A stretch of DNA of 32,000 nucleotides from Propionibacteriaceae bacterium (lineage in GTDB: Bacteria; Actinomycetota; Actinomycetes; Propionibacteriales; Propionibacteriaceae): positions 30,001 to 62,000 of the forward strand of contig JAIRQE010000015.1 of NCBI GenBank assembly GCA_031256725.1. The letters are read 5' to 3'. A program made the translations under genes and the position numbers. Below the pieces are notes generated by a model. It saw only the letters and a program-made list of their open reading frames with translations. It searched no databases and was not told the origin of the DNA. Shown here piece by piece: positions 9,131-31,897 of the stretch; position 1 is the stretch's first letter; each line of letters opens with the position of its first letter.

Positions 9131-9162
9131 CTGTCCACACCTGTGGATAACTGTGTGGACAG
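9131..9162. promoter_or_regulatory. Three DnaA boxes at the dnaA promoter/5' end
   Basis: CTGTCCACA (9131-9139), TGTGGATAA (9142-9150, perfect) and TGTGGACAG (9154-9162). Boxes 1 and 3 are exact inverted copies. Confidence 0.8.
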
Positions 9163-9193
9163 CGCTAGACACCATCATCAGAGAGGAGACACA

Positions 9194-10558: not shown

Positions 10559-10580
10559 AGGGCATTCTCCCCTCCCATTG

Positions 10581-10849: not shown

Positions 10850-11096
10850 ATCACTTCCCCATTCCCTTCCGTTGTTGCCCCATGCTCAAGAACCCCATTC
10901 TTATCAATCCTTGAATAGCCTGATAATTACCTGTGGGGTCTATCGGCTAAACGGTGTAAGTGGCTCTACTGCCCTGGTGGGCGGAAGGAGTCATAGATGA
11001 CTGCAACACTAGTGGTTATGGAACCCTACCTGTGTGCTGGATTCCGGCAGCGGATTAATTACCTACTAGATTAGATATCTCGTGGCTGGTGTACAC

Positions 11097-11199
11097 GGAG
11101 GGGGTACGTCTATCTCAAACACACTCCCACAGTTGTTTCTTGTAGAAACAACTCCTCCGTTCGGGGATACGGTTTGAGATAGATGTACCCCACTCCTCC
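11097..11199 (+). repeat. Palindromic MITE-like intergenic repeat, copy B (inside the dnaA-dnaN spacer)
   Basis: GGAGGGGGTACGTCTATCTCAAAC...central hairpin AGTTGTTTCT-TGT-AGAAACAACT...GTTTGAGATAGATGTACCCCACTCCTCC. The terminal arms are inverted repeats of each other and match copies A and C. Confidence 0.8.
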
Positions 11200-11326
11200 A
11201 AACATAAATCACGAAAAAACCAAGAACCATCACAACTAGCATAATAAGACATCAAGATAGAATTCTAAGAGACAATGTAGGACTTGACCCACCGAATCGG
11301 TATGATGCATAGAACAAGGAGTACCC

Positions 11327-12484: not shown

Positions 12485-12494
12485 TCATGGTGCC

Positions 12495-13634
12495 GTGTAC
12501 CTTTCCCAGCTTCATCTGAGCAATTTCAGGTCTTACACCTCGCTCGACCTAGAGCTTTCACCTGGTACCACGATTCTGGTGGGCTCTAACGGGTACGGGA
12601 AAACGAATATTGTCGAAGCAGTACAGTACCTCGCAACGTTGGGATCCCATAGGGTCAGCTCCGATCAGCCTCTGATCCGCCGTGGATCTGATATCGCAAC
12701 CATTGGTGCTCGGGTTCACGCCGGCATTGGTGATGATCGTTGCCTGAGTCTGGCCATCGATCTTCGATCCGGTGCGGCAAACAGAGCCCTTCTCAATAAA
12801 GCGCCAGTACGCCCACGTGAACTCAGGGGAGCTGTACGAACGATCTTCTTCGCCCCAGAAGATTTAGCTATCGTACAAGGTGATCCGTCCGAAAGGCGAC
12901 AGTTCATTGACGAACTTATTGTGAGTCGTTGGCCTCGACTTGCTGGAATCAGATCTGAATATGATCGCGCTCTCAAACAGAAGACAGCATTATTGAAGGC
13001 CATCTCGGGGCGCAGTCTTCGTGGTGCCGGAGGTGGAGCTGAAGAAACGGTCGCTGTGTGGGATGAGGAGATTGCTAAACTTGGTGCCGAGATTGTTGCC
13101 GCACGTTTGCGTACCCTCAGTGATAGTGAAGATATGGTGGCGCGTCACTATTCCACAATCGCACCAAAGAGCAATCTGGCATCTGTGAGCTATCATTCAT
13201 CGGCCGTAGCCCATGACTCACAGGCCGACGCGGACTTCCTACGTATAACCCTTGCTGAGGCTATCGCAATGAGAAAATCAGAGGAAATAGCTCGGGGGGT
13301 CTGTCTGGTTGGACCCCATCGTGATGATTGTTCCCTTTCACTAGGAGATTTGCCAGTACGCGGGTATGCCAGTCACGGGGAATCCTGGTCTTTTGCACTA
13401 GCACTCAGGCTCGCCAGTTTGGATCTTTTGCGTGAGGATGGCGTTGAACCGATCCTCATCCTTGACGATGTATTCGCAGAATTAGATAAATCTCGCCGTC
13501 TTGCCGTTGTGGCAGCGATCGACTCTGTTGAACAGGCATTCATCACTGTGGCTGTACCCCATGATTTGCCTCAAAACCTTGAAGGTAGTGTGTATGAGGT
13601 CACACCCGGTACTGTGGTGAAAAAGGAGGTGTGA
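12495..13634 (+). CDS. recF: DNA replication and repair protein RecF
   Basis: GTG start. '(M)YLSQLHLSNFRSY', Walker A 'GSNGYGKTNIVEA' and the signature 'ASHGESWSFALALRLA...ILILDDVFAELD'. Confidence 0.93.
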   Translation: MYLSQLHLSNFRSYTSLDLELSPGTTILVGSNGYGKTNIVEAVQYLATLGSHRVSSDQPLIRRGSDIATIGARVHAGIGDDRCLSLAIDLRSGAANRALLNKAPVRPRELRGAVRTIFFAPEDLAIVQGDPSERRQFIDELIVSRWPRLAGIRSEYDRALKQKTALLKAISGRSLRGAGGGAEETVAVWDEEIAKLGAEIVAARLRTLSDSEDMVARHYSTIAPKSNLASVSYHSSAVAHDSQADADFLRITLAEAIAMRKSEEIARGVCLVGPHRDDCSLSLGDLPVRGYASHGESWSFALALRLASLDLLREDGVEPILILDDVFAELDKSRRLAVVAAIDSVEQAFITVAVPHDLPQNLEGSVYEVTPGTVVKKEV

Positions 13635-14152
13635 TGAGTGAGGATGAACAGATCCTAGCAAGGCCCCATGACCCCACGGGTACTGATGTGGCTGAGCGGA
13701 TCGCCAATGCTGCTCGTGGTGTTGCTCCAGTGAAGCGCCGTCGTCGTAAAACTCCACCTGATGAAGACTCCCCATGGTCGAGTGCAGGCCCGGGACCCAG
13801 GGACCCTCAACGTGCAGGAGTAGTCCTGGATTCTGTACTCAAAAAACGCGGATGGAAGAAGCAGGTCTCAGTGGCTGCGCTCATGCCTGAGTGGGCTAAG
13901 TTCGTGGGTGATGTTAATGCTGCCCACACAAAACCCGAAAAATGGGAATTAGGAGTTTTGACTATCAGAGCAGAATCTACGACGTGGGCGACCTCTCTTC
14001 GAGCCATGTCCCCGCAGATCATCGCCCGGCTCAACGAGATCCTTGGCCCAAAAACGGTCACCAAACTCCATATTCTTGGCCCCCAAGCCCCCTCATGGAA
14101 AAAGGGGCTCCGCTCTGTACCAGGGCGAGGCCCACGGGATACCTACGGCTAG
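13634..14152 (+). CDS. dciA: DUF721/DciA-family protein (Rv0004-like, conserved after recF)
   Basis: 'VLDSVLKKRGW...WAKFVGDVNAAHTKPEKWELGVLTIRAESTTWATSLR...II.RLNE' with a C-terminal '...GPRDTYG'. ATG 13634 overlaps the recF stop, and AAGGAGG lies 4 nt upstream. Confidence 0.8.
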   Translation: MSEDEQILARPHDPTGTDVAERIANAARGVAPVKRRRRKTPPDEDSPWSSAGPGPRDPQRAGVVLDSVLKKRGWKKQVSVAALMPEWAKFVGDVNAAHTKPEKWELGVLTIRAESTTWATSLRAMSPQIIARLNEILGPKTVTKLHILGPQAPSWKKGLRSVPGRGPRDTYG

Positions 14153-17804: not shown

Positions 17805-17860
17805 CACACCCAGTCAGGGAAGCCGTTGATGACTTCCCTGACTCAGGGTGTGTTTATTTT
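17805..17860 (+). terminator. Rho-independent terminator
   Basis: CACACCCaGTCAGGGAAG-ccgttgatga-CTTCCCTGACtcaGGGTGTG, followed by TTTATTTT. Confidence 0.8.
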
Positions 17861-17880
17861 CCTGTGGTATTCTGATTGAT

Positions 17881-20202
17881 ATGCAGGCAAATTCTCGTCT
17901 TCGCAAGCTGTCATCGTTCGGAATGCTTATAGCCGTCTCCGGCCTCGCAGGTGTTCTGGTGGCTGGTCTTGCGATTCCCGTAGCTGCTCTTACGGGGGTC
18001 ATGTCCCAAGTGGTCTCCACCTCTCTTGAGGAGCTCCCTTTGTACTTGGAGACCCCTCCCCAGGCCCAGCGTACGACTGTGTACTACTCCAATGGTGAGA
18101 AGATGGCTGAATTCTATGATGAGAACCGCACAATCGTCACCTTGGACCAAATTGCCCCGATCATGCAGCAAGCGCAGGTCGCTATTGAAGATGACAGGTT
18201 CTACCACCATGGTGCCCTCGACTTCAGGGCCTTGGCGAAGGCAGTACTGTCCTACTTTGGTCGCTCCGACGGTGGTGGTGGATCCACGTTGACCCAGCAG
18301 TACGTCAAGCAGGTCATCATGGAGGATGCTGCAAAGATCATGAAGGAAGACGAGAGACAGGAAGCCCTTGAGGCTGCCCAGGAACGTACCATCCGACGCA
18401 AGGTCCAAGAGATGAGGCATGCGATCGCGGTAGAGAACAAGTTCAGTAAAGACGAGATCCTGGAGAGGTACCTGAACATTGCCTACTATGGTGCAGGTGC
18501 TTACGGTGTCGAAGCCGCAGCACATAGGTACTTCGACACTACTGCTGCTGAACTCACTCTCGCCCAAGCTGCCCTTCTTGCAGGTATCGTTCAAACCCCG
18601 TCACGCAATCCAGTGGATAATCTTGCTGGTGCCCTGGAACGCAGGAACACCGTCCTTGATCGCATGGCAGAGTTAGAGATCATTACTAAGGCTGAGGCTA
18701 AGGAAGCCAAAGCTGAAATCTTTGATACTGGGCTCATCCAAAATGTGAGGAATGGGTGTGTGGGAGTTCCTCACTCTCAAGTATGTCGGTTGGTATGGAA
18801 CTATCTGATGACCAACGAGGCCCTTGGCAAGAACAAAATGGAACGCGAAAACATGGTGAAGCGTGGTGGGTTCGATATCAAGACCACCATTAACCCAGAA
18901 ATTCAAAATTCCACACAGGCCGCAATCTCAGCGAGAATCCACCCACAAGATCCAGTTCTTGCTGCCATCATCATTATTGAACCTGGTAAGGGTCGCATTG
19001 TTGCTGCTGCACAGAATCGATATGAATTCGGTATGGACGAAGCGGCAGGGCAAACCAACTACCTATCTTTTGCGCTACCAGAATTAGGAGGGGATGAGGG
19101 GGGCCAGCCCGGATCCACCTTCAAGATGCTGACCGCAGCAGCAGCCCTTGAGGCTGGAATACCACCCACGAAGAAGTTTGACGCAAAAGCGCGCATGAAC
19201 TTCCGTGGTCAGGTTTTCAGATCCTGTAGCGGGCCATTTAAGCTCGGAGATTGGAATGTGAGAAACGTATCTCCATCTGGCCCGATGGATATGTATCAGG
19301 CCGCGATGCAGTCAGTGAATACCTACTTTGTGCTCCTGGAACAAATGGTGGGTATTTGTAATGTGGTAGAGATGGCCGAAAAAGTCGGTGTGGTCGCAAC
19401 CAAAGGTCCAGACTATCCCGAGGGTCTGAGATCCTATGACGGTACAGCATCATTGACACTAGGGACTCTTTTAACATCTCCTATGTCCATGGCGACAGCC
19501 TATGCCACATTTGCGTCCGGTGGAATTCGGTGTAATCCCATTGTCATTGAATCAATCACTGATAAAGAAGGCAAGGAGTATTCAACCCAGCAACCCAACT
19601 GCGAACGAGTCGTATCAGAAGATGTCGCAAACGCGATTAACCTCATCTTCAACAAGGTGTTTACATCTGGTGGTACAGCGTCCTGCTGCGGAGTGAGGGA
19701 CGGAAGGCCAGCATCAGGAAAGACCGGAACTACAGATAACGGTGAGGCTGCATGGCTGATCGGATACACCCCTGAAGTTGTGGGTGTGTCCATGATCCGT
19801 GTGGATAAGAATCCTAAGTGGGATTATTTCTGGGATCCGAGAAGGAATTCAATGACTGGTGTCAGGCTTCCTGCTTCGGGAACAGTCTTGGCTGGTTATG
19901 GTGGTCCTGATGCTGGGCGGATGTGGAAGACTGCGATGGACTCAGCCATCGGATGGTACCCAGCCACACGCTTCAAGCCACCTGGAGGTTCCGTGCTTAC
20001 TGGGAAGGCCACCACTCCACCAAATACAGATGGTATGAGTGATGTAGCTGCACGACAGGTCCTGGAGGCTGCAGGATTCTTCATCATCACCACAGATGTG
20101 TATCACGATTCACAAGCTGGTACCTTCCTGGGTGCAAAGTGTGAACGAGTCTTGGGTGGTTCATGTACCTTCACCTACTCTATGGGGCCACGGCCTTCCT
20201 GA
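17881..20202 (+). CDS. Class A penicillin-binding protein (GT51 transglycosylase + transpeptidase) with a C-terminal PASTA domain
   Basis: GT51 motifs 'AIEDDRFYHHGALD', 'GGSTLTQQYVKQ' and 'RKVQEM'. Transpeptidase motifs 'STFK', 'SVN' and 'KTGTT'. The C-terminal 'MSDVAARQVLEAAGFFIITTDVYHDSQAGTFLG' is PASTA-like. ATG 17881 is preferred because GTG 17848 lies inside the terminator stem. There is no obvious SD. Confidence 0.92.
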   Translation: MQANSRLRKLSSFGMLIAVSGLAGVLVAGLAIPVAALTGVMSQVVSTSLEELPLYLETPPQAQRTTVYYSNGEKMAEFYDENRTIVTLDQIAPIMQQAQVAIEDDRFYHHGALDFRALAKAVLSYFGRSDGGGGSTLTQQYVKQVIMEDAAKIMKEDERQEALEAAQERTIRRKVQEMRHAIAVENKFSKDEILERYLNIAYYGAGAYGVEAAAHRYFDTTAAELTLAQAALLAGIVQTPSRNPVDNLAGALERRNTVLDRMAELEIITKAEAKEAKAEIFDTGLIQNVRNGCVGVPHSQVCRLVWNYLMTNEALGKNKMERENMVKRGGFDIKTTINPEIQNSTQAAISARIHPQDPVLAAIIIIEPGKGRIVAAAQNRYEFGMDEAAGQTNYLSFALPELGGDEGGQPGSTFKMLTAAAALEAGIPPTKKFDAKARMNFRGQVFRSCSGPFKLGDWNVRNVSPSGPMDMYQAAMQSVNTYFVLLEQMVGICNVVEMAEKVGVVATKGPDYPEGLRSYDGTASLTLGTLLTSPMSMATAYATFASGGIRCNPIVIESITDKEGKEYSTQQPNCERVVSEDVANAINLIFNKVFTSGGTASCCGVRDGRPASGKTGTTDNGEAAWLIGYTPEVVGVSMIRVDKNPKWDYFWDPRRNSMTGVRLPASGTVLAGYGGPDAGRMWKTAMDSAIGWYPATRFKPPGGSVLTGKATTPPNTDGMSDVAARQVLEAAGFFIITTDVYHDSQAGTFLGAKCERVLGGSCTFTYSMGPRPS

Positions 20203-20207
20203 GTTCC

Positions 20208-21962
20208 TTACCCAGCGAAGACAATCTCAGCAAAGTCGGCTTGACCGTTACCGTTACTGAGATCCACCACGCGGGTGATGTAGACGATGACATAGCGTGT
20301 CGTAACTGAGGAGAAATCCAAGGTGGTCACAGGCTCAGTGAGTTCAGATTGTACGACTGGAGTCCAGTGGGTGATGCTGATCATGTCAGGCGCCTCCACT
20401 GCTGCTGCATCACCTGCGGGTACATAGATTGTGACCGAGGTGGGGCGAAGGTTGATTGTCAGGGTTGCCTGACTCACAGGTACAGCCGACCCAAGATCCA
20501 AGATCAAACCCACACCAGGTTTCTTAGTCGGGATGACGGGTTCCTCGTATTCCTCAGTATGCCATGCGGTAGAGATATCACCATCGAAGGCGTACGGTAT
20601 CTCCTCGGGTCTCTCCCAACCCGAACCGCCGTCCTCCTTCGAGTCAAAAGCGGCGCCGGACATGATCGGTCGAATCGTGAGTTCGGTAGATGGCGTGGGA
20701 GTGTCCTTAACTTTGGGACTGCGAGCAGAATGGTACAACCCGATGATCACTGAACTCATGAGAGCCAGGATGACCAGGACAACCAAGGCAAGGAAGACCC
20801 GTGACCAAGCCCGCGCCCTGTCAGGCGGAATGGGTGGGCGCAGGGGTACCGCAGGATTCTTGGTGTTCACAGTGAACCCCCCCAAGGGTTGATCACTGGG
20901 GTCCTCAGGGGAAGCGTGGGCATCGACAACCACTGTGAGGGATTGCTCATCCAGGTCCCGAGCAGGAACAATAGTGGGTCGTTGGGCCTGCCCAGGAATG
21001 GGAGGTGAAGGCAAGACTGGCTGGGCATTCTCGGTGAGCTGTGCGACCCGATCCACCAACCAGGGGGTGGGGTCCTTGGAGCCGAGGGTGGAACCCATGG
21101 CTTCAGCAACACCAAAAGCAGTGTCAATATGTTCAGGATCTTTGAGAGAAAGGATCTGTGTGGTGAGTCGATTGAGCTCCACTGAGGTACCGGGGCGAAC
21201 ATGGATAGGTGGTTTCAGCCCCTCAGGGTTTCGTGGAGATGAAGGCAGGCCCACATCCGCGGCCCCAGGCCAGGTTGCTGTCAGGCAGGAATACAGCAGG
21301 CCACCACAGGCGACAACATCCATGGCCTCCATGTCGCTGCGAATCAGTTTGTGGTCATTCTCACGAGGGGTGAGAGTCTGGTCGAGGCGCAGCCCAAGGA
21401 TTTTCACTTCACCAGTGGTTGAGAGGAAGATCTTGGATGGGTCGAGGCGGCAATGGTACTGTTGCATCGTGTGGGCTGTCGCCAACCCTTCCGCAATCTC
21501 GCGTATCACGAAAGCGGACTCTTCACCTGAGAGGGGACCGAGGCTCAGGACTTCAGACAGACTCGCCCCATCGGCTTTTTCAGAGACAACAAAGGCACCA
21601 TCTGCATCCTGGCCAGCATCAAGAATTCTCAAGAATCGTGCATCCATAGCCCCGGATGCCATGCGGGCAGCTTCCAGACAAATAGCGGTGTTCTCATCAT
21701 TGGGAAAGGCTGTCACTAGTACTGTTCTGGACAGTGATTCATCAAGAGCCGACCAGCGAGTCCCACCACCAATGTTGGTAAGCATCTCACGCAGTCGGAA
21801 TCTGTCTGCGATGAGGGCACCTGGCACTAAGGGTGCAAGTCCAGTGAGGATGGGTTGGGTCTCCTCAGGGGTGAACTCTGGAAGGAAGGGGGAAGAGGGA
21901 ATCGAAGGCTCATCATCATGGGCACGTCGAGGACGGGATTCCTCGTTGGGGTGTTGGGTCAT
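20208..21962 (-). CDS. MurJ-associated pseudokinase: degenerate STPK-like domain, TM helix and an extracellular discoidin/F5-8C-like carbohydrate-binding domain
   Basis: The kinase-like fold has degenerate catalytic motifs: 'HCRLDPSKIF' instead of HRDxKPxN, and 'ILGLRL' instead of DFG. It has a TM helix 'VFLALVVLVILALMSSVIIGLY' and an ectodomain 'AFDGDISTAWHTEEY'. The architecture equals the C-terminal part of M. tuberculosis MviN (Rv3910). Confidence 0.85.
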   Translation of the reverse strand: MTQHPNEESRPRRAHDDEPSIPSSPFLPEFTPEETQPILTGLAPLVPGALIADRFRLREMLTNIGGGTRWSALDESLSRTVLVTAFPNDENTAICLEAARMASGAMDARFLRILDAGQDADGAFVVSEKADGASLSEVLSLGPLSGEESAFVIREIAEGLATAHTMQQYHCRLDPSKIFLSTTGEVKILGLRLDQTLTPRENDHKLIRSDMEAMDVVACGGLLYSCLTATWPGAADVGLPSSPRNPEGLKPPIHVRPGTSVELNRLTTQILSLKDPEHIDTAFGVAEAMGSTLGSKDPTPWLVDRVAQLTENAQPVLPSPPIPGQAQRPTIVPARDLDEQSLTVVVDAHASPEDPSDQPLGGFTVNTKNPAVPLRPPIPPDRARAWSRVFLALVVLVILALMSSVIIGLYHSARSPKVKDTPTPSTELTIRPIMSGAAFDSKEDGGSGWERPEEIPYAFDGDISTAWHTEEYEEPVIPTKKPGVGLILDLGSAVPVSQATLTINLRPTSVTIYVPAGDAAAVEAPDMISITHWTPVVQSELTEPVTTLDFSSVTTRYVIVYITRVVDLSNGNGQADFAEIVFAG

Positions 21963-21965
21963 CTC

Positions 21966-23663
21966 CTAGTCACCACTTCCTGGTTTATGGGTATCCACTC
22001 GTGGTTCCTTTCGCAGCCGTGAACGGATAATCGACGACAGATCCTCTACTTCGGGGATCTTCACCAGTTTCGCTAATCCCCAGTAAACACCAAATCCGAG
22101 AGTTCCTGCGATCACCAGGCCGATAAGGATCTGAGGTCGTCCAGGAATTAGCCAGTTTTGGAGCCACATGACCCCCCAAGCAAGCGCAGATGCCGGAACA
22201 GAGATGAGAAACAGAACAAGAGTGTGCCCTGCAATCTTTTTGGTCTCCAACCCCGGTACGGTGTTGCGGAAGAGAATCCAGGCAAGGAAAGCCGACGTGA
22301 TATAGCCCATCACATATCCGAAAGCCACACTGGGTGCCACCCATGCTGGCGGTACCTTGAATAGCAAGACTAGAAGCAGAGAGACACCCGAGGTAACTGC
22401 GACAAAGAGGATCTCCACAAAGAAGGGGGTACGGGTGTTTTGCATGGAATTGAACCCCTTCATCACCAGGAATCTCAAAGTGAAGGGAATCAAACCGGCA
22501 CTGAGTACGATCAGGGTCCAGCCGATTTGTACCCCTCCATTCGGGATACCATAGGCCATGATCATACCTGGAATCGATATGGAAGCCATGATCAGGGACA
22601 GGGGCATAACCACGACATAGATGGTACGGATACTCGATATGAATTGCCCAGTGAAGTGTTCCCAGTTCTGTTCGACAGCTAGTTTCGATAGTGAGGGGAG
22701 CAACGCCGTTGCCAGGGACACAGTGAGCAGTGCATGGGGGAGCAAGGAAACCAGCATCGCGGTAGTGAAAACAAAGGAACCTGCACCACTACCACTTAAC
22801 GTGGCACTACCAGTTAACCGGGTAATGATGAAGAAGTTGAGCTGATCCACAACCACTAAACCGAGGGCCCATTTCGCGAGGTGGGCGGTACTGCCCAAAC
22901 CAGTGTGAAGGAAGTCGAACCGGGGGCGGTAGCGGAACCCGACCTTCTTGAGGAAGGGGATAAGTATGGCCATCTGGATCGCGACCCCAAAGACTGATCC
23001 CAACCCGAGAAGAAGAATCTGGGATGTGGTAAAGGCTTGGGTGGTGTCATTGTGGAAACCCCAGATGAGTGCGTATATCCCAAGCATCGCGACCTGGATG
23101 ACATTGTTGAGCGCTGGAGCCCACATGAGCGGGCCGAAGGAACCACGAGAGTTGAGGATTTGACCACCAAGGAAAAACATTCCGAAAAAGAACACCTGCG
23201 GCATGACTAATGCAGTGAGCATGATCAGCGAATCATATTGGGAAGCCAACTCGTCCACCCGCCAAGTGGGACGGGTGATGAGCCGAACCACAAAAGGATT
23301 CAGCAGGACCAGTAAAGCTGTGATCCCTAGAACCATCAGCCCGAACAGGGTGACGATCCGGTCGGAATAGGCTTGACCCCCATCAGCGTCCTCCTTCATC
23401 GACCTCATGAGCTGGGGAACAAGAATGGCATTCAGGATTCCACCAGCAAGCAGGAGGTACATCTGGGAAGGAATCGATGAGGAAATATTAAAGATATCAG
23501 CCTGGATTGAGGTTGAGGTGAAAAGGTACCCCACAAGGAGGACTCGCACCATCCCTAGGGTTCGAGACACGAGGGTACCAGAAGCCATGAGCATGGTGGA
23601 TGAAAAAAGCTTGGGCTTATTCATCACTGCATCATCACCAGATTTGTTCACACGATCACTCAT
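21966..23663 (-). CDS. murJ: Lipid II flippase MurJ (MviN)
   Basis: 565-aa polytopic MOP-family protein with an N-terminal 'MLMASGTLVSRTLGMVRVLLVGYLF' and about 14 hydrophobic segments. Its start overlaps the upstream gene by 8 nt. Confidence 0.9.
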   Translation of the reverse strand: MSDRVNKSGDDAVMNKPKLFSSTMLMASGTLVSRTLGMVRVLLVGYLFTSTSIQADIFNISSSIPSQMYLLLAGGILNAILVPQLMRSMKEDADGGQAYSDRIVTLFGLMVLGITALLVLLNPFVVRLITRPTWRVDELASQYDSLIMLTALVMPQVFFFGMFFLGGQILNSRGSFGPLMWAPALNNVIQVAMLGIYALIWGFHNDTTQAFTTSQILLLGLGSVFGVAIQMAILIPFLKKVGFRYRPRFDFLHTGLGSTAHLAKWALGLVVVDQLNFFIITRLTGSATLSGSGAGSFVFTTAMLVSLLPHALLTVSLATALLPSLSKLAVEQNWEHFTGQFISSIRTIYVVVMPLSLIMASISIPGMIMAYGIPNGGVQIGWTLIVLSAGLIPFTLRFLVMKGFNSMQNTRTPFFVEILFVAVTSGVSLLLVLLFKVPPAWVAPSVAFGYVMGYITSAFLAWILFRNTVPGLETKKIAGHTLVLFLISVPASALAWGVMWLQNWLIPGRPQILIGLVIAGTLGFGVYWGLAKLVKIPEVEDLSSIIRSRLRKEPRVDTHKPGSGD

Positions 23664-25563
23664 GGGCTTCCTTCTTTCGTCTGGCGGTACGGACCCTCAA
23701 GAAGGTTCCCACAACGAAGAGTACGAATCCGGCACCTACGACAACCCAGCCCATCCAGGCGGATGCACTGGCATGGATTCTGATGGTGGCAGTGGAATCA
23801 AGGGGGATCCCACCAGATGTGCTCAGGCTCAGATTGGCATCGACATCACCTTCACGAATAATCGAAGCAGCGAGGTCAACCCTGAGACGGTCACCTGGAG
23901 GAACCTCAATCACAGTACTTGCTGGGATGCTTACAAGTGCCAGGGATCCACTCACAGGGGTGACCTGTGACGAGATTCTCACGAAAGCTGGAACACTGAG
24001 ACTGTTCGTGACCCACACTGGGAAAACATTCGTCTTGGATGTGAGAGAGACATCCCTAGCTGTGATCGTCACGGAAGCCATGATCTGATGTAACCAGGTA
24101 TCCACCGAGGAAGCGTACTGGGCTGCTTGCTCATCACTAGCCCAGGATTGGGAGGTGATCGAAGCGATAGGTGCAGTTGTGAGCAGTTGTACAGCAGTGT
24201 CGTCACCAATGAGGTCGGCATATTTGTGCATGGTGGACTGGGTGATCGACAAGGAATCCAGGATCGCAGAAGTCAAAGTACCCTGGGGTTCACCAGTGGC
24301 CGTCGATTCTTCCCACTGGCCATGAACAGGAATCAGATTCAGAGGTACGGTGGTCACCCAGGAGGGGAGAGTGAAAAGAGAGGCCTCGTCTTCGGTGTGT
24401 ACCACCCGGATGAGCGGGGAGTCACTCAGGGCATTCTCGGCAATCATTCGTTGTCGCAGCTGGAGGGTCGTCGAAGGATCATCGGGCCCAGGCCCGCCCA
24501 GGAAGGGTGTGGCCAAGGTGTTCAGCAGAACTCCATCCGTGAGGGAGACACTAGCTTTTGCTTCAGCTAGGACAAGCTCCGGTTTGAGGGGAGCAAGATA
24601 GTCGATGAGGGCAGAGTTTGCTTGACCATTGTGGGTACGAATGAGCAGGGGAAGGTCATCCATCTCTGGGTTTGCGAGCTCAGCTTGGAGAGATGCCGTC
24701 ACGACATCTGTACCTGTGGTTAAGCCGAGGGCAAGATCAGGATTACCCCACGGAAGTCGATGGCCATGATCACGATTAAGGGTACGAAATTGTGTTAACC
24801 ATTCTTGAGCGACTTTGCTGCCGCGACCTTCGCTATGGGTACGCCCATCCCAGACGGTGTACCCCTTCGCCATGACTGTGATCTCATGGAAGAGCCCAGG
24901 ATCAATAGCCCAAGAAACATTGGGTCGGGAAGCCAAGGTGAGCAAGGTAGCGAGTCGACCCTTGAGTTCACTAGACAGATGTTCATCAATGAAAACCGTG
25001 TCATGGAGAAGAGAAGGTGGGGTGGTGAACATCACGATGGTGGCTGTGGTGGCCGCAGTTGTTGTGGCGCGTGTTGCCAGGGTACGACCCTTGCCAATCG
25101 TCACCTGGGAACCCGAAGGTTCAGCGGAGCCACGAACATGGACCCCAAGGAGGTAGACAGCGTCATGACTAATGTTGAGTTCATCCCAGGTGGCTGAGAC
25201 TTTGAACTTCTGGGTTGTATCGGAGTTAAACCGCTGGTCTCCTTCAGTGATGGGTGAGATCGCAGCCGGATTCAGGATACGGTCTCCAGAGTCGAGTTCA
25301 GGACTGACCTCAAGGGCGGACCTCAATTGAGCCTGGGTGGTGAGCGGACGGTTGTCGACCCACAAGACTACTTGTACTTGGTAGAGATGATCCCAACCAG
25401 AGTTGGTGACCTCTCCTTGAAGACTGACCCCTAGATCGGTGACTGCGACTTCTGTAAAAGTGACACTGGCGTGGTACTGATCAGCGTGTGCCTGTGGGGC
25501 ACTCATAGAAACCGAGAAGGCAATGATTAGGAGCGCGACAAGAAGACACCCCTGGTGTTTCAT
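23656..25563 (-). CDS. Conserved actinobacterial secreted, C-terminally membrane-anchored protein upstream of murJ (Rv3909/DUF6049-like by position and architecture)
   Basis: Signal peptide 'MKHQGCLLVALLIIAFSVSMSAPQAHA', a large ectodomain, and a C-terminal TM helix 'WMGWVVVGAGFVLFVVGTFL' followed by a basic tail. The start is ATG 25563 (GAGGAGGA upstream) or ATG 25587. The family assignment rests on synteny and memory only. Confidence 0.8.
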   Translation of the reverse strand: MKHQGCLLVALLIIAFSVSMSAPQAHADQYHASVTFTEVAVTDLGVSLQGEVTNSGWDHLYQVQVVLWVDNRPLTTQAQLRSALEVSPELDSGDRILNPAAISPITEGDQRFNSDTTQKFKVSATWDELNISHDAVYLLGVHVRGSAEPSGSQVTIGKGRTLATRATTTAATTATIVMFTTPPSLLHDTVFIDEHLSSELKGRLATLLTLASRPNVSWAIDPGLFHEITVMAKGYTVWDGRTHSEGRGSKVAQEWLTQFRTLNRDHGHRLPWGNPDLALGLTTGTDVVTASLQAELANPEMDDLPLLIRTHNGQANSALIDYLAPLKPELVLAEAKASVSLTDGVLLNTLATPFLGGPGPDDPSTTLQLRQRMIAENALSDSPLIRVVHTEDEASLFTLPSWVTTVPLNLIPVHGQWEESTATGEPQGTLTSAILDSLSITQSTMHKYADLIGDDTAVQLLTTAPIASITSQSWASDEQAAQYASSVDTWLHQIMASVTITARDVSLTSKTNVFPVWVTNSLSVPAFVRISSQVTPVSGSLALVSIPASTVIEVPPGDRLRVDLAASIIREGDVDANLSLSTSGGIPLDSTATIRIHASASAWMGWVVVGAGFVLFVVGTFLRVRTARRKKEAHE

Positions 25564-25734
25564 GATGATCGCAATCCTCCTCACCATGCCATCCTACAAG
25601 TGAAGACACGCCGATTTGGGGAGGCCGCAGTGAGTTTTCAACCCATAATCGAGGTAATTCTGTCCACAGGGGACATGAGATATCGCGTGAAGAAATCTGT
25701 GTTCTAGACTATGTACCATCTAGAGGACAGTGCC

Positions 25735-28700
25735 ATGTTGGGCAGCGAGAGTTTTGGAGATTCGGTGGCCATCTTTGTAAGAGGGATACACAAGTCTCAC
25801 CGGGGTGTGAGGTTCCTCAGTGGTGCCAATCTGAATGTGAGAGACTCCGAATTCTGTGTACTCCTAGGCTCGGATACTCGCGGGAAGACCATGCTTCTCG
25901 CTTGTCTGGCTGGCTTGGCCCAACCCGATTCAGGCACCATTGAGATCAATGGTCATGAACTTGGATCCTGGGATGGCCGCCCCGAAGTGGGAGTAGTCCT
26001 CACAACGAGCCTTCTTGATCACAACTTAACTGTGGCGAAGAACATGGCCTTCCATGCACGGGTACGTAGGTTAACCAAGGAACAGCGTGCAGATCTTGAC
26101 GTGATCTACGATCAACTAGATCTTCACGAACACATGAACACCAAGGTACGAAACCTAACGCGTGGTCAGCGTAGACGTGCAGAGTTCGCACGAGCGCTGA
26201 TCCACAATCCCATGGTTCTACTTCTTGATGATCCAACCTCGGGATTGGATTCCCATAGTGCCACAGTGATGTGGAAGGTGATCATTGATCAACGCAACCG
26301 GGGTCGTACCATCCTGTTAGCTACCGATCATTCCAGCTTGGCGTCACGAGCCCATACTGTGGCCATTGTGGAAACTGGGCGAATAGTTGCACACGGACGT
26401 ACCACCTCCCTGATGGAAAACTTCCTGAAAGGCACCCAGTACAACCCCGGTACCCTTGATGATGTACTGCGTCTCGTACGTGAGCGGGCCATGATCGAGG
26501 ATGCGGAAGGTGATTTAGGTAGCGGGTCAGGATATGCCGATCCCGATTTCGAGACCGACGGGTACTTCGATGCTGAAGACTCCCTCGTGGAACTGTGGAC
26601 AGAGGATCGCGAACTCGAAGAAGACGATTCCGTGGGCGTAGACATCATGAGGCCTGTGGATCAGGACATGCTTGACCCATCCCTTGCCGATATGGATGTA
26701 CATGAGGATGAATACGAGGATGACTTTGAGGACGACCTTCAGGATCTGGATCTAGAAGCCTTCAATGATGTCGAGGTACTAGACGAGTTCATAGGCGATG
26801 GTTTTGAGCATCATGAGGAGAAGGACGCCAAAGAGGACGACGAGTTTGCCGAGGATGAGGATGTAGCTGAAGATACCCACGACCTAGAGGTCACCAAGGA
26901 AGTACAGCCACCCGGGGACACAAGTGAAAAACCAGCGAGTGAGAACGGTCGTACCCTGCCGGCCTATGTAGATGTGGTGAGCGTTCTGGAAGCAGAGAAA
27001 GCGGCCGTACTCAAGGTACTCGACGCAATCAAGGACGATGACGATGAGGATGACCTCATCGGACTACTCCTCCATGGCGATACCGAAAAAGCTAAAAAAC
27101 CTAAGCCCACTTCTATGGATATGGATACGGCCACGCCGCTGAGTGAACCAAGGCCTGTACAGCAATCCTCCCCAACGAACACCACGATCGGGAGTCTGTG
27201 GTGGAATCCTGTTCCCTCATCAATACCTGCAGTGATCGCCCAACATCCCAAGCCTGATGAGCGCCTCAAACCCCTGACGAACCCAGCGGATTTCTTCCCC
27301 CCAAGTCAACCAGGCACGCAGTCTGCAAGCCCCGAGTCGCCCAAGCCTGTATCTACAGAGGTACCAAAACCGCAAGTGACTCAGCTACCTGAATCTGCCC
27401 CCAAAACCGAGCCTGAATTCTGGAAGCCACGAGCAATGCCACCCATCCAGGCTCCGACCATGCCAGCGAGGACACCGCTTGTACCTCCAGATGCAGAGTT
27501 TGGTATGCCCGAGGTACCCTTGCCAGCTGTGATCTTCCCTGATGTGGGAGAGGATCTCTCCTTCATTCGCCAGACCCTTTTCGGGGAACTTGACAACGAC
27601 GAGGATGAACCAGATGTGCAGCTGAGTCAGGGTATGCAGCGTCCACCGCGTGAGGTCATTGCCGAGGTACCCAGTGAGGAGTTGGATCTTGATCAGGGGT
27701 TGGGTGAGGTCGATATGGCTTTGTCTGAGAGGTACCTTGAGCGTACCCGTCAGGATTTGGCGCGCGCTCGCCGCGACTTTGATCATGATCCTGAACCGAA
27801 ACTTCCGCCTCAACAGGCACAACCTGTGGCAGAAGAATCGCTAACATCCTCCATGGCAAAGGAACTTGATCTGGATAAGTTCCGCAGGGATCTTGATCGG
27901 GATTTGAATTTGGTACGGGAGCGCATTGCTGGGGATCTTGATGAAGATGACCCGCCTGTAGCAGACCTTGTTGACCTTGTTGTGCCACCCAAAAATCCTG
28001 TTCCCAAACCTGAGATAAGTACTGTAGTTCGGATTTCTGATTCTGAGTCAAAATCGGATGTCTCAAAACCAAGAACTGAAGATACTGGTGAATCACGGCG
28101 TCCTCGGGCACTCACAAATCCTGCAGTGAAAGGGTTTGCATTCCCCTCACTGTCGCGGTTGGTCTCCAAGAAGCAGGAGGTTGAAGACGAGGTTGTTGAG
28201 GATGAGGCTGTCGAGGAGGAACCGGAGTTTGAGGAAGAGTTCGTAGAGGACTACGACGAGACCGATGAATACGAAGATGAGTATGCGAGTGAAGATGACT
28301 GTGACGATGCCGATGACGACTATGAGGATGAAGACGACGAGGATGAGGATTACGAGGATGACGATCCATTAAGCTCCTCAACTCATCCGCAATCCTTGGG
28401 TACCCGTTCATCGGTGACTCCTCGACTATCCTCAGGGATCTCCCTACGCCCACCATCAACCTTGGATTCCCCGATTTCTCGGCTACCCTCCGAAACCTCA
28501 TCTGGTATTGCGCGCGCGAAACCTCCCACCGAGAGGCCCACCAAATCCCTGTCTGAAGCCACAGAACGTAACCTGTACTTTGCTGATCTTGCCGAAGCGT
28601 ATGGACTCGTTGACCGTGACGAAGACGAGGATTCGGGGCTGAAATTTGCCATGCCTCTCATTGAAGGATCAGAGGTGGGTGGGGAACAACTCTCGGAGGT

Positions 28701-28959
28701 CTCCCGCCTTCTCAAAGACGCCATCTCTGCCCACCCGCTACCCTCCTTTGATGAGCAATTCCCCACAGGGTTCATGCCGAAAGATGATGAGGAACCCCTG
28801 GAAGAGATGTTTGACGAATCTCATACACGGTGGTCTGATGAGATTAGACGCCCCGTTGATGCTGAACTGGCTCGCCAGGCCCGCATCCAACTTGCAGTGG
28901 CGAAAAGACTTGAGGGGGCTCGACGTCGACTCTCAGCCGAAAAGGAGGATCGTACATGA
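25735..28959 (+). CDS. ABC-type ATP-binding protein with degenerate catalytic motifs, fused to an ~800-aa acidic/proline-rich disordered C-terminal extension
   Basis: The first ~240 aa form an ABC NBD: Walker A 'GSDTRGKT', signature 'LTRGQ', Walker B 'VLLLDDPT', H-loop 'ATDH'. The rest is D/E- and P-rich low complexity in one intact 3.2-kb frame. The stop overlaps the permease ATG (ATGA at 28956). Start is ATG 25735 (GAGGA upstream) or ATG 25711. Confidence 0.85.
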   Translation: MLGSESFGDSVAIFVRGIHKSHRGVRFLSGANLNVRDSEFCVLLGSDTRGKTMLLACLAGLAQPDSGTIEINGHELGSWDGRPEVGVVLTTSLLDHNLTVAKNMAFHARVRRLTKEQRADLDVIYDQLDLHEHMNTKVRNLTRGQRRRAEFARALIHNPMVLLLDDPTSGLDSHSATVMWKVIIDQRNRGRTILLATDHSSLASRAHTVAIVETGRIVAHGRTTSLMENFLKGTQYNPGTLDDVLRLVRERAMIEDAEGDLGSGSGYADPDFETDGYFDAEDSLVELWTEDRELEEDDSVGVDIMRPVDQDMLDPSLADMDVHEDEYEDDFEDDLQDLDLEAFNDVEVLDEFIGDGFEHHEEKDAKEDDEFAEDEDVAEDTHDLEVTKEVQPPGDTSEKPASENGRTLPAYVDVVSVLEAEKAAVLKVLDAIKDDDDEDDLIGLLLHGDTEKAKKPKPTSMDMDTATPLSEPRPVQQSSPTNTTIGSLWWNPVPSSIPAVIAQHPKPDERLKPLTNPADFFPPSQPGTQSASPESPKPVSTEVPKPQVTQLPESAPKTEPEFWKPRAMPPIQAPTMPARTPLVPPDAEFGMPEVPLPAVIFPDVGEDLSFIRQTLFGELDNDEDEPDVQLSQGMQRPPREVIAEVPSEELDLDQGLGEVDMALSERYLERTRQDLARARRDFDHDPEPKLPPQQAQPVAEESLTSSMAKELDLDKFRRDLDRDLNLVRERIAGDLDEDDPPVADLVDLVVPPKNPVPKPEISTVVRISDSESKSDVSKPRTEDTGESRRPRALTNPAVKGFAFPSLSRLVSKKQEVEDEVVEDEAVEEEPEFEEEFVEDYDETDEYEDEYASEDDCDDADDDYEDEDDEDEDYEDDDPLSSSTHPQSLGTRSSVTPRLSSGISLRPPSTLDSPISRLPSETSSGIARAKPPTERPTKSLSEATERNLYFADLAEAYGLVDRDEDEDSGLKFAMPLIEGSEVGGEQLSEVSRLLKDAISAHPLPSFDEQFPTGFMPKDDEEPLEEMFDESHTRWSDEIRRPVDAELARQARIQLAVAKRLEGARRRLSAEKEDRT

Positions 28960-29837
28960 GTTCTCTAGGAACCCGACTCGCCATCACGAGAGCCCTAGTG
29001 TCGCGAAGTCTGCGAGTCTTTCGTCACAGCTACTCGTCCCTGGTCCTTGCATTGGTTTCCCCAGTGGTTTTATGGGTTTTTTTCCTTGCTTTGATCCGCC
29101 CCCAAACTGTCAGCTTCCTGGAGATGATCACCGACCAGGAGGTCGCTTCAATCAGTGACGCATGGGTTTTTGCCACGGTTGCTGTCTTGAGTGCCTTCCC
29201 CACAACACTGGCTGTGCTTACTGGTTTCTTAGCGGATTACCGTTCGGGGCGCCTCGGTTTGCTTCTTGCTTCAGGTGTCAAAAAGGGACAGCTGGTGTGG
29301 GGGTACATCATCGGAGCCACCCTTGTAGCCTTCATGATCTCTGGTGGTCTTGTCGTCATTGGGCAGGTGTGGGCTCTCGCCTTTGGACAGCCCACGATGA
29401 CTGTGCAGTTAGCGCTCAGTGTTACAGGCAGCGTACTAGCAGCAGCATTCTTCTTTGCTGTCTTGAATGCCACAGTCCTCAGTTTCACAGTCTCCCACAG
29501 TGCCTTCGGGGCGTACTGTTTCCTGGGAGGTACCATCGTGGGGATCCTGACCCTGTCCTACACTCTCAATCACGGCAGTGGGTTGTACCAAATAACAGGG
29601 GTCTTGCCCTTTGCTCAGCTTGCTGCCCTCGTACGCCAGCCCCTGATCACTCCAGGTATGGCATCTATAGACGAGAAGATCACGCCCGAGATCCTCAATC
29701 TTCTTGGTACCCAAATCCATATTATTAATGGTGGTACCTGGCCGATCTGGATGATCCTCGCCTTTTTGGCGGCCTGGACTGGGTTTGCGTTGATCCTGTG
29801 TCAGATGAGGGTACGCCACCTCTTGCGTGACCGCTGA
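28956..29837 (+). CDS. ABC-2-type transporter permease
   Basis: 293 aa with ~6 TM helices, translationally coupled to the ATPase gene. The topology is typical of ABC-2/DrrB-like permeases. Confidence 0.8.
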   Translation: MSSLGTRLAITRALVSRSLRVFRHSYSSLVLALVSPVVLWVFFLALIRPQTVSFLEMITDQEVASISDAWVFATVAVLSAFPTTLAVLTGFLADYRSGRLGLLLASGVKKGQLVWGYIIGATLVAFMISGGLVVIGQVWALAFGQPTMTVQLALSVTGSVLAAAFFFAVLNATVLSFTVSHSAFGAYCFLGGTIVGILTLSYTLNHGSGLYQITGVLPFAQLAALVRQPLITPGMASIDEKITPEILNLLGTQIHIINGGTWPIWMILAFLAAWTGFALILCQMRVRHLLRDR

Positions 29838-29958
29838 TCGAAGACTCGGACCCTGGGGATAACCCCACCATCAAAGTCTGGTGTAGGTACCAATGACGTA
29901 CAGATAGTAATGATGAAAAACTGAATGCAGTAACCTAAAAGACGTGGAAGGAAAAACC

Positions 29959-31236
29959 ATGAACCAGGTAACAGAAGAACTGCGCCCAGTTCAACAACTT
30001 AGGAAGCACTCGCTTGTGAACCGTACCCTCCGCGATTCCGGGTACATCCTCGCGGCACTGCCTTTCGCCATTGCATCCTTTATTGTCATCATCACCGGAG
30101 TCTGCCTAGGGGCGGGGATGGCGATCATCTGGATAGGTCTGCCGATTGGGGTCGCCACCTTGTACGCCGGTCGTGGATTCGCCAATATGGAGAGGCTGCG
30201 CCTACACAAACAAGGTACCATCATTGAAGGGGTGCCTGCCCTGCCGCAGACTTCCACTGCCTGGTGGGCGAGAGCCCTTCGTCCCCTCAAAGATCCTGGG
30301 CTATGGCGCGAAGCCCTCCACGGAATACTGATTTTCCCCATCTCGGTCTTCACCTGGTCAGTGACACTCACATGGTGGGCCCTAGTTCTGAGTGGATTCA
30401 CCGGTTGGATTTGGGAGCCACTAAGTGGCTATTACAGTGGCGCTGGTCAGCTCATGCGTCTCCTGCACTGGCCTATTCCCGGCTGGGTTTTCGATCTTAT
30501 TATCGGAGTATTCGCCCTAGTCACACTGCCTTGGGTGGTACGTGGGTGTGCGTTCATGCATGTCGGGCTCGCCAAGGCGTTCCTCGCACCCTCGAAAGAG
30601 AGTCTTGCCCAGCGGGTGGCCTACCTCTCTGAGGCACGCGACCAATTGGGGCGGGCCGAGACCTCAGCATTACGGCGTATGGAACGCGATCTTCACGACG
30701 GCCCACAGCAAACACTGATCCGTTTGGGTATGGATTTGGCTGCAACCCAGCGTCGCCTTGACGAGGGCGACATTGAATCCGGGACTGCACTTCTTGATGG
30801 TGCCCGTCATATGACCGACTCTGTTATCGCCGACCTTCGCTCGCTCTCCCGAAGTATTGCTCCTCCGATCCTCACCGAACGTGGACTCGGGCCAGCATTA
30901 CTTGCCGCTGCTGCGACCTGCACTATCCCAGTTTTAGTGAACTATGACTTCCCCAGCGAACCACCAGAGAAAGTCGCGACTGCTGCGTACTTTGTTGCAT
31001 GCGAAGCATTGGCCAATGCTGTCAAGCACTCTGAAGCCACAAGGATCACTGTGCTTGTCACCACAGACGACAACAATGATTTACTTCTGGAGATCCACGA
31101 CAACGGTACAGGTGGTGCCCAGTCCATCCCCGGTCACGGTCTGGCTGGTTTGCAGGATCGCATCAGCGGGCTGGATGGTCATCTCACGATCAACGGTACC
31201 TCTGGTACCACGATCACAGCAGTACTACCAATGTGA
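29959..31236 (+). CDS. Sensor histidine kinase, HisKA_3/NarX-LiaS-DesK class, with an N-terminal polytopic 'putative sensor' membrane domain
   Basis: H-box 'RMERDLHDGPQQTL'. HATPase motifs 'EALANAVKHSEA', 'IHDNGTGGA' and 'GHGLAGLQDRI'. The N-terminus has ~4 TM helices with no sizeable extracytoplasmic loop. ATG 29959 is preceded by GGAAGGA. Confidence 0.9.
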   Translation: MNQVTEELRPVQQLRKHSLVNRTLRDSGYILAALPFAIASFIVIITGVCLGAGMAIIWIGLPIGVATLYAGRGFANMERLRLHKQGTIIEGVPALPQTSTAWWARALRPLKDPGLWREALHGILIFPISVFTWSVTLTWWALVLSGFTGWIWEPLSGYYSGAGQLMRLLHWPIPGWVFDLIIGVFALVTLPWVVRGCAFMHVGLAKAFLAPSKESLAQRVAYLSEARDQLGRAETSALRRMERDLHDGPQQTLIRLGMDLAATQRRLDEGDIESGTALLDGARHMTDSVIADLRSLSRSIAPPILTERGLGPALLAAAATCTIPVLVNYDFPSEPPEKVATAAYFVACEALANAVKHSEATRITVLVTTDDNNDLLLEIHDNGTGGAQSIPGHGLAGLQDRISGLDGHLTINGTSGTTITAVLPM

Positions 31237-31261
31237 GTCAATGAATCGAGGAAGGTGAACC

Positions 31262-31897
31262 ATGCGACTGGTCATAGCCGAAGACAGTGTCCTGCTCAGG
31301 GAGGGGCTTGTACGACTGTTTACCGAACTCGGACACGAGGTTGTTGATGCTGTTGACGATGCCCCTCGATTGATTGAATCGGTACAGACCCATCTTCCTG
31401 ACATGGTTGTGACAGACGTACGTATGCCACCCACACATACCGATGATGGGTTGCGTGCCGCAATGACCATCCGTTCCACGAATCCTGAGATCGGCTTGCT
31501 GGTACTCTCACAATGGGTTGCAGTAGAAGCAGCACAGGAGCTTCTCCGCGATGGGAGGGGCGCAGTAGGGTACCTCCTCAAGGACCGGGTCCAGGAATTC
31601 TCGATGGTGGCCGCCACCTTAGACATCATCGTCAAGGGTGGAACGATGGTGGATCCTGAAGTCATCGCACAGATTACTTCAGATCGGAAAGGTCCCAATC
31701 CTTTGACCTCCCGAGAGTCAGAGGTACTCTCACTCATGGCCGAAGGCCGATCCAATACCGCTATTGCATCCCAACTCGTGGTAACCCTAGGTGCAGTAGA
31801 GAAACACATTGCCTCCATCTTCACCAAACTGGATCTGACCAACTCCAGCGATGATCACCGCCGTGTACTAGCTGTCCTGTGGTACTTGGGTGGTTGA
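31262..31897 (+). CDS. Response regulator, NarL/LuxR family
   Basis: Receiver domain 'MRLVIAEDSVLLREGL...MVVTDVRMPP'. LuxR HTH 'LTSRESEVLSLMAEGRSNTAIASQLVVTLGAVEKHIASIFTKL'. Confidence 0.93.
   Translation: MRLVIAEDSVLLREGLVRLFTELGHEVVDAVDDAPRLIESVQTHLPDMVVTDVRMPPTHTDDGLRAAMTIRSTNPEIGLLVLSQWVAVEAAQELLRDGRGAVGYLLKDRVQEFSMVAATLDIIVKGGTMVDPEVIAQITSDRKGPNPLTSRESEVLSLMAEGRSNTAIASQLVVTLGAVEKHIASIFTKLDLTNSSDDHRRVLAVLWYLGG

Follow-up and report, generated by a model that had tools for sequence, protein, structure and literature searches.

The locus described here raises the question of why the ATPase gene of an ATP-binding cassette (ABC) exporter operon should continue for roughly 810 codons past its nucleotide-binding domain (NBD), and whether this continuation is a selected part of the protein. 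The gene lies in a stretch of 32,000 nucleotides from a Propionibacteriaceae bacterium (contig JAIRQE010000015.1 of GenBank assembly GCA_031256725.1, positions 30,001 to 62,000), the whole of which we call the window. An initial annotation had proposed that an acidic and proline-rich disordered tail of about 800 residues is fused to an ABC ATPase, and the single open reading frame (ORF), its composition and its AlphaFold2 (AF2) model bear this out. The same annotation described the tail as almost only low-complexity sequence, which must be revised: the tail consists of a hypervariable spacer, a strongly conserved module of about 90 residues at the C-terminus (the C-module) and a few short conserved islands. 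What is new here is a lineage-restricted appendage, together with an unannotated domain, on an otherwise ordinary ABC-2 exporter operon.

A conserved end module behind a variable spacer

Residue numbers refer to the 1074-residue form of the protein unless stated otherwise. Residues 261-1082, in the numbering of a 1082-residue form, contain 13.4% D, 13.0% E and 9.9% P, compared with 6.9%, 4.6% and 1.9% in the NBD. The densest stretch of the tail holds 42 D and E in 60 residues, and no more than 16 are found in any of the 20 other genes of the window. The AF2 model of the complete protein drew on 69 aligned sequences. In it, the predicted local distance difference test score (pLDDT) is below 50 for 650 residues, all of them within the tail save residues 1-6, and about 79% of the approximately 810-residue tail is modeled in this way. 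The stretches concerned are residues 264-412, 441-658, 683-711 and 733-982. The initial annotation had located the D/E run (residues ~821-885 in the 1082-residue numbering), the proline-rich block (residues ~460-600 in that numbering) and the basic end correctly.

We compared the window protein with 11 full-length relatives using BLASTP. The NBD is 37-50% identical to theirs and the C-module 36-52% identical, and the region between the two never aligns. Across the family this linker ranges from 285 to 848 residues in length, and its net charge is always negative but varies from -18 to -131. In composition it extends from 37% D+E in P0125 to a nearly neutral, P/S/T/G-rich sequence in P0126/L017, with a net charge of -18 and 11.7% D+E. 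A spacer would be expected to vary in length and composition in this way, and a folded domain would not. The question of whether the tail, its length and its charge are conserved among homologs, or only the NBD, has a divided answer: the NBD and the C-module are conserved, the length of the linker is not, and its acidity is not strictly so. The linkers of P0126/L017 (4558-8019) and L018 are rich in P, S, T, G and A, almost neutral, and include a 12-residue unit (PGTRPGQSPAQT) repeated in tandem about five times, so different lineages have remodeled the composition of their linkers independently.

The 80% consensus of 19 distinct C-modules reads LP.FDE.FP...LP / W..E..RP..E..A.QAR..LAVEKR...ARRR, and the window protein fits it with LPSFDEQFP, W..E..RP and ARQARIQLAVAKRLEGARRRL. 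AF2 places helices at residues 983-998, 1022-1038 and 1043-1073, the last of which confirms the helical, basic end described in the initial annotation, and blocks of that helix average a pLDDT of 88-96. When the last 125 residues were modeled in isolation, the same helices were obtained with a predicted template modeling score of 0.29. This suggests that the C-module is not a compact domain but a set of helices whose folding probably depends on a partner. A profile search of PDB, a search of Pfam at E ≤ 10 and a Foldseek search against PDB returned only noise for the C-module (E ≥ 0.3), and NCBIfam held no matching model. A PADLOC scan of the whole protein produced only a generic partial ABC-ATPase match. 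We also considered the terminal helix as an amphipathic membrane-targeting helix or anchor and rejected this, since it is too polar (mean hydrophobicity -0.39 to -0.65, hydrophobic moment 0.20-0.43).

The combination of an NBD, a variable linker, the same C-module and an overlapping permease start was found in about 19 independent sequences. All named members of the family come from Propionibacteriaceae metagenome-assembled genomes (MAGs), at least one of them from a termite gut. We ran HMMER exhaustively against 1.84 billion representatives with the 822-residue tail as query and obtained only nine proteins, all of which matched over their last ~90-110 residues only, with E-values of 1e-8 to 1e-28 for the eight proteins other than that of the window. 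The full-length matches are ABC ATPases of 658, 699, 821, 1149 and 1254 residues (P0125-P0129) that carry the module at their extreme C-terminus. When the NBD alone was used as query, the best match was P0002, at 50% identity, and the runner-up reached 37%; P0002 is cut by the end of its contig, yet it already runs into a similar acidic stretch. A word-indexed protein search was less productive. With the tail as query it returned only P0001, the NCBI model of the window protein itself; with an alignment of the C-module it returned no match, D/E and R words having probably swamped the candidate list; and with the NBD alone it recovered only P0002 of the family, the rest of which was found by the exhaustive HMMER search.

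The same layout is present on assembled contigs. A single scan of GTDB contigs, which used N-terminal patterns specific to the subclade of the window protein and L002 and so says little about the spread of the family among GTDB genomes, revealed a complete ortholog, L002, whose source is a MAG of the Propionibacteriaceae obtained from Neocapritermes taracua, a humus-feeding termite (gut section P3). L002 consists of an NBD, a P/S/T/E-rich stretch of ~550 residues and a recognizably similar C-terminus, and its permease ORF begins 20 nucleotides before the ATPase gene stops (12396 vs 12415). Scanning metagenomes with the module alignment added 12 further loci of the same layout (L013-L024), and in these and in L010 a GTGA or ATGA overlap with the next gene is found at the same junction. 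The contigs that bear the fusion include NCBI WRIC01, ENA ERZ27257293 and ERZ27257295, JGI 3300010882, 3300042604 and JGI24699J35502, and QMCE01; a megablast search of plasmids gave no match. The initial annotation had held that the open frame encodes one cytoplasmic protein rather than two merged genes, and the recurrence of both the fusion and the permease overlap on about 19 independent sequences upholds that view. It had also known of no characterized ABC-2 ATPase with such an extension, and we likewise found none, characterized or annotated, in Pfam, NCBIfam, PDB or the literature searched. On this evidence, the architecture is an undescribed one, and a small group of uncultured Propionibacteriaceae is the only place where it has yet been seen.

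We estimated the ratio of nonsynonymous to synonymous divergence (dN/dS) by the Nei-Gojobori method for four closer pairs of family members with 60-71% overall identity. The ratio is 0.12-0.24 for the NBD, 0.20-0.32 for the alignable columns of the linker, in which 32-101 columns are gaps, and 0.07-0.11 for the C-module, where dS is 0.63-0.97 and dN is 0.045-0.094. These values, which come from other family pairs, are far from the dN/dS of about 1 that would mark the tail as strain-specific junk. By this measure the C-module is under stronger constraint at the protein level than the ATPase domain itself, and the linker is relaxed but not neutral, having been kept in frame through many indels. 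We asked as well whether the conservation of the C-terminus could come from the overlapping Shine-Dalgarno (SD) sequence and start codon of the permease gene, and rejected this explanation because synonymous sites diverge freely. The excess of dS over dN in the C-module indicates that the constraint acts on the protein.

The gene, its further features and its surroundings

The features of the ATPase gene and of the genes around it are collected in Table 1. The first in-frame ATG of the ORF, at 25711, has no SD sequence, and a GAGGA at 25723-25727 stands 7 nucleotides before the ATG at 25735. Since the NCBI model P0001, which is 1074 residues long and 100% identical to the window protein, also begins at 25735, this ATG is likely the start, a small correction to the gene start taken initially. 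Log-odds of codon usage favor the frame of the ORF in every 300-nucleotide segment, tail included, and tandem repeats in the tail DNA are trivial units of 6-21 nucleotides confined to the D/E runs. The ATGA that couples the stop to the permease start, as initially annotated, is present and is accompanied by a perfect SD sequence that sits within the codons of the last residues of the tail (EKEDRT). The extreme C-terminus is thus constrained both as protein and as RNA.

Table 1. Coordinates in the window of the extended ATPase gene, its parts and its neighbors
Feature	Position	Strand	Extent and basis
Complete coding sequence, ABC ATPase with tail	25735..28959	+	1074 aa from ATG 25735; 1082 aa from ATG 25711
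NBD, DrrA-like/ABC-2 type with degenerate motifs	25735..26520	+	aa 1-262; Pfam, NCBIfam, motif mapping, AF2
Disordered, net-acidic, hypervariable linker	26521..28680	+	aa 263-982; AF2, BLASTP, family comparison
Conserved island 1, LVELWTEDRELEEDDSVGVDIMRP	26584..26655	+	hydrophobic residue and Trp, then acidic run; just after NBD
Predicted helical island in linker	26974..27072	+	aa 414-446; AF2 helices 414-433 and 438-446
Proline-rich, nearly neutral block	27073..27510	+	7-11 P per 40 residues, net charge ~0; AF2 pLDDT ~30-36
Two 'ELDLD' modules	27700..27930	+	predicted helices aa 656-682 and 713-732, pLDDT 75-82
Conserved island 2, degenerate form, KPRTEDTGESRRPRA	28066..28110	+	regular expression and visual comparison
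Main polyacidic run	28171..28365	+	aa ~813-877; 23-29 D+E per 40 residues
C-module	28681..28956	+	aa 983-1074; helix LSEVSRLLKDAI, 'LPSFDEQFP', helix '..W..E', 'RP', long basic terminal helix DAELARQARIQLAVAKRLEGARRRL
Translational-coupling junction	28942..28959	+	SD AAGGAGG 28942-28948; ATGA overlap (stop/permease start) 28956-28959
Divergent ABC-2-type permease, partner of the ATPase	28956..29837	+	293 aa
Two-component system	29944..31897	+	histidine kinase (Sensor PF13796, HisKA_3, HATPase_c) and NarL/LuxR-type response regulator; Pfam
DUF6049-like secreted or membrane protein, divergent upstream gene, synteny anchor	23656..25587	-	643 aa
Class A penicillin-binding protein	17848-20202		
Protein with weak kinase-like (pseudokinase-like) match and F5/8 type C domain	20208-21962	-	584 aa
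MurJ	21966-23663	-	adjoins DUF6049-like gene

Within the linker, island 1 is the counterpart of a '(G)VIAPVW + acidic' motif elsewhere in the family, aligns with SSWWNDDEELDDDNDDVGIGILKP of P0002/L002, and is present in 9 of the 12 full-length members. Island 2 corresponds to the basic motif 'W.RA.RF.DTGR..RRP', as judged by comparison with WSRAPRFSDTGRTSGTRRRPV of P0128 and with eight other members, and is missing from L002 and L019. The 10-residue blocks that cover the predicted helical island average pLDDT values of 63, 82 and 59. The two 'ELDLD' modules of the initial annotation have the coordinates it gave them, but they resemble each other only modestly (a Smith-Waterman z of 3.7; 4 of 1000 shuffles did equally well). 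Since this similarity is weak and the modules are not conserved among the relatives, we rejected them as a true repeat family. A Ser/Thr/Pro-rich segment at 28369-28560 (residues ~878-940, e.g. SSVTPRLSSGISLRPPSTLDSPISRLPSETSS) lies between the main acidic run and the C-module; purely as speculation by analogy with the linker of Rv1747, actinobacterial Ser/Thr kinases might act on it.

The NBD is well modeled, with a pLDDT of 87-98 over residues 7-262. The sole Pfam match in the window protein is ABC_tran (PF00005), over residues 37-177, at 86.3 bits against a cut-off of 25; Pfam found no match to PF13732, a DUF4162-type C-terminal domain. The top NCBIfam models, PQQ_ABC_ATP and drrA, both score under their cut-offs, and the 127.4 bits obtained with the drrA model TIGR01188, against a cut-off of 312.45, do not reach the threshold of the DrrA subfamily. 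The domain closes with 'TLDDVL', which resembles LDEVFL and is followed by acidic sequence, and a DUF4162-like segment of ~45 residues that precedes this motif is deleted in the subclade of the window protein and L002 relative to P0125-P0129.

We mapped the catalytic motifs of the NBD on ABCB4 and ABCA3 and in the 69-sequence alignment. The Walker A box, GSDTRGKT, aligns with GSSGCGKS and GHNGAGKT and fits GxxxxGK[ST], although its inner residues are atypical; in P0002/L002 it reads GKA. The column of the Q-loop Gln holds Thr (VGVVLTT vs IGVVSQE), and the signature motif, LTRGQ, departs from LSGGQ. The Walker B box is LLLDD, with Asp in place of the catalytic Glu. Within the family this substitution is confined to the window protein, DE being present in all other members and in 51 of 55 outgroup sequences. 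The H-loop column holds D in the window protein, with a His at the following position (TILLATDH), and D, E or A in the other members, with no His nearby. A homodimer of an NBD with these motifs would carry two degenerate sites, and a homodimer with such substitutions is expected to hydrolyze ATP slowly. The apparent family-wide loss of the H-loop His and the DD of Walker B in the window protein suggest a slow or regulated ATPase, which, more speculatively, would be compatible with a regulatory or sensory role of the appendage.

The permease of the window is 45% identical to that of L002 and 37% identical to that of L010. It has no match in Pfam or NCBIfam, and the clearly orthologous permeases carry only weak ABC2_membrane matches, which together make this a divergent ABC-2 permease lineage. 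The 643-residue protein encoded upstream has no Pfam match itself, and it is 48% identical over 614 residues to the DUF6049 gene product upstream of P0129 in L012. Given these levels of identity for permease and neighbor, the locus is orthologous across the family. The surroundings nevertheless differ: in the other loci compared (L002, L010, L012, L017, L018 and L022), a divergent PadR regulator gene lies directly upstream of the ATPase gene and the permease gene follows it, and the PadR gene is accompanied by one for a DUF1048 protein or a DUF1700-like/pentapeptide-repeat protein. The window has neither PadR nor its companion, and a 123-nucleotide intergenic region (25588-25710) is found there. 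We therefore rejected the PadR or pentapeptide-repeat neighbor as an obligate partner of the C-module, since both are absent here and the module is kept. Conversely, the two-component system occurs only at the window locus and is absent downstream of L010, L012, L017-L019 and L022.

Farther upstream, a cell-envelope cluster (17848-25587) adjoins the transporter, and the chromosomal origin region, with dnaA, dnaN, recF and a DciA-like gene, occupies 9143-14152. Between 9 and 12 kb the G+C content is as low as 0.47-0.49, and the minimum of the cumulative GC skew lies at ~12-17 kb.

Candidate roles of the extension

The account that we hold, with confidence a little better than even, is that the extension is a tethered binding module on a flexible and usually polyanionic leash, and we are much surer of the architecture in this account than of the function. 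The gene encodes the ATPase subunit of an ABC-2-type exporter, and the C-terminus of this subunit is extended into a two-part cytoplasmic appendage. The first part is a long disordered spacer, usually polyacidic and free to evolve in length and sequence. The second is the strongly conserved helical end module of ~90 residues, made up of an amphipathic helix, 'LP.FDE.FP', 'W..E..RP' and the basic helix 'QAR..LAVEKR...ARRR'. The spacer may serve as a flexible leash or entropic bristle that leaves the end module mobile yet held at the membrane transporter, and the C-module, together with the two short linker islands, may bind a putative partner. We infer that the protein is produced in full length and that its C-module binds such a partner. 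The putative partner must be encoded in every host, this one included; and given that the PadR and pentapeptide-repeat genes are missing here, the likeliest target would be the transporter itself or a housekeeping cytoplasmic component. If it is the transporter, the module could contact the NBD or the permease, either in cis or on neighboring complexes. Among the roles proposed in the initial annotation, that of a tether fits this anatomy, and those of a polyanion or of cation binding are weakened as a family-wide function, because linker acidity varies down to a net charge of -18.

Several points weigh against this account. MAGs and metagenome contigs supply all of the evidence. Partial saturation of dS (0.5-2.5) and uncertain linker alignments make the dN/dS values rough, and these values come from pairs that exclude the window protein, whose nearest relative is only ~50% identical. 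In L002 the C-module is divergent, with neither 'RP' nor 'LP.FDE', which means that constraint on the module is not uniform. Finally, the pLDDT of the C-module is no higher in the full-length AF2 model than in the isolated one, which gives no sign of docking on the NBD and is a weak negative.

This last observation also bears on an autoregulatory electrostatic switch, in which the basic terminal helix and the C-module would control ATP hydrolysis by docking back on the NBD dimer or the permease of their own transporter, and the polyanionic spacer would compete with or screen the docking, so that activity would follow cytoplasmic ionic strength, pH, Mg2+ or polyamines. Such a switch seems unlikely to us, though far from negligible. 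It would draw on the blocky charge pattern of the tail, with acidic blocks of up to -29 per 40 residues and a basic terminal helix, and on the degenerate NBD motifs, which suggest regulated or slow turnover; the transporter itself is always present, as a partner needed in all hosts must be, and OpuA offers a precedent for electrostatic gating (PMC7673798). Besides the unchanged pLDDT, the nearly neutral linker of L017/P0126 shows that acidity is not conserved, and a leash of 285-848 residues seems needlessly long for a contact in cis.

The extension could instead be a self-association scaffold, in which islands 1 and 2 and the C-module act as stickers and the disordered spacers between them allow transporters to cluster into nanoclusters or condensates, as Rv1747 does (PMC9312465). 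In favor of such a scaffold, long disordered spacers set apart four conserved islands in which W, F and R abound, and oppositely charged blocks share one chain. However, a net charge of -131 per chain disfavors homotypic condensation in the absence of a polycationic partner, Pfam finds no FHA or other multivalent folded domains, and island 2 is degenerate here and absent in L002 and L019, so we regard clustering of this kind as quite improbable.

A largely non-functional expansion, in which the linker is neutral low-complexity sequence and the conserved end reflects nucleotide-level constraint on the SD sequence and start codon, is very improbable. No sequence conservation of the linker is detectable from one lineage to another, it is full of indels and short codon repeats, and the permease SD sequence does lie inside the last codons. 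That constraint spans ~15 nucleotides, though, not 270, and the divergence of synonymous sites in the C-module (dS 0.63-0.97 vs dN 0.045-0.094) largely refutes this explanation for the module. Even in the linker, dN/dS is 0.2-0.3, and every lineage keeps the frame open for 285-848 codons. A sequencing or assembly artefact, that is, a frameshift or chimera joining the NBD gene to an unrelated ORF, deserves almost no credence: the sequence does come from a MAG, and DNA of low complexity is prone to errors, but the outcome that the initial annotation had named as its undoing is refuted by the recurrence of the same fusion on independent contigs from several assemblies and samples, and codon usage backs one frame throughout.

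The leashed binding module can be taken one step further, to a hitherto unrecognized class of 'leashed' ABC transporters in which a catalytically attenuated NBD serves mainly as a membrane-anchored sensor or hub, and a leash of 300-850 residues and its module capture or release a cytoplasmic partner, or cluster complexes, in response to transport state or cytoplasmic ionic conditions. We consider this extension rather unlikely. If true, the class would be a bacterial counterpart of the logic of the CFTR R-region and of Rv1747, with components that are all new. Bacterial proteins rarely contain disordered regions of several hundred residues, which are essentially undescribed on stand-alone ABC ATPase subunits, and the grammar of the tail, in which a free spacer is followed by an end module more constrained than the ATPase, makes it experimentally tractable. 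If the module regulates or localizes the transporter, it would represent a new regulatory principle for type V/ABC-2 exporters as well as a new domain family; if the tail does nothing measurable, it would still be an example of long low-complexity sequence kept in frame in bacteria.

Comparison with described systems

In gene order, the locus recalls the LnrJK-LnrLMN and YvfTU-YvfRS systems of Bacillus subtilis, which are ABC-2 exporters with a HisKA_3 kinase and a NarL-type regulator. Here too an ATPase, an ABC-2 permease, an intramembrane-type HisKA_3 kinase and a LuxR-type regulator follow one another. In contrast, the ATPases of those systems have ~300 residues and no tail, and the two-component system of the window is missing from the other family loci. 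The locus is not a BceAB-type module, since its permease is a 293-residue ABC-2-like protein without an FtsX match and its kinase is of the PF13796 plus HisKA_3 type.

OpuAA of Lactococcus lactis carries a short anionic C-terminal tail. OpuA, which is gated by ionic strength, differs from the system described here in being a type I importer with folded CBS domains, of which Pfam finds no match in the window protein, and in having a tail of only ~20 residues. Its on and off states are set by electrostatic gating through a cytosolic element of the NBD (PMC7673798). Among 1581 ABC sequences surveyed in 2026, the C-terminal flank of NBD-only proteins has a median disorder fraction of 0 (PMC13257379).

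FtsZ and SSB share the plan in which a hypervariable disordered linker, very variable in length, joins a globular domain to a conserved terminal interaction element. In SSB these are a disordered linker and an acidic tip (10.1101/797431), and in FtsZ a C-terminal linker and a C-terminal peptide (PMC9312465). Those proteins are unrelated, and their terminal elements have 6-15 residues, compared with ~90 here. Closer in setting is Rv1747 of Mycobacterium tuberculosis, an actinobacterial ABC-2-like exporter with a long cytoplasmic disordered region for regulation and clustering, whose FHA-linker module phase-separates and whose transporter forms nanoclusters (PMC9312465). Its module is N-terminal, ~310 residues long, and combines a pair of FHA domains with a linker that bears phospho-Thr sites, whereas the extension of the window protein is C-terminal, ~810 residues long and closed by a novel helical end; Pfam finds no FHA domain in the window protein at E ≤ 0.01.

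The DrrA-type ATPases resemble the window protein in that its NBD scores best against the drrA and PQQ_ABC_ATP models, ends in the LDEVFL-like 'TLDDVL' and is paired with a separate, coupled permease gene. The C-terminal motifs of DrrA reportedly play a role in contact with DrrB, according to work from the Kaur laboratory. The window protein departs from DrrA in scoring far under the cut-off and in carrying an extension of ~810 residues rather than tens of residues, with a terminal module that DrrA lacks. Nevertheless, the LDEVFL and Glu-rich CREEM motifs at the C-terminus of Streptomyces DrrA (PMC3533511) make up the closest described C-terminal regulatory element.

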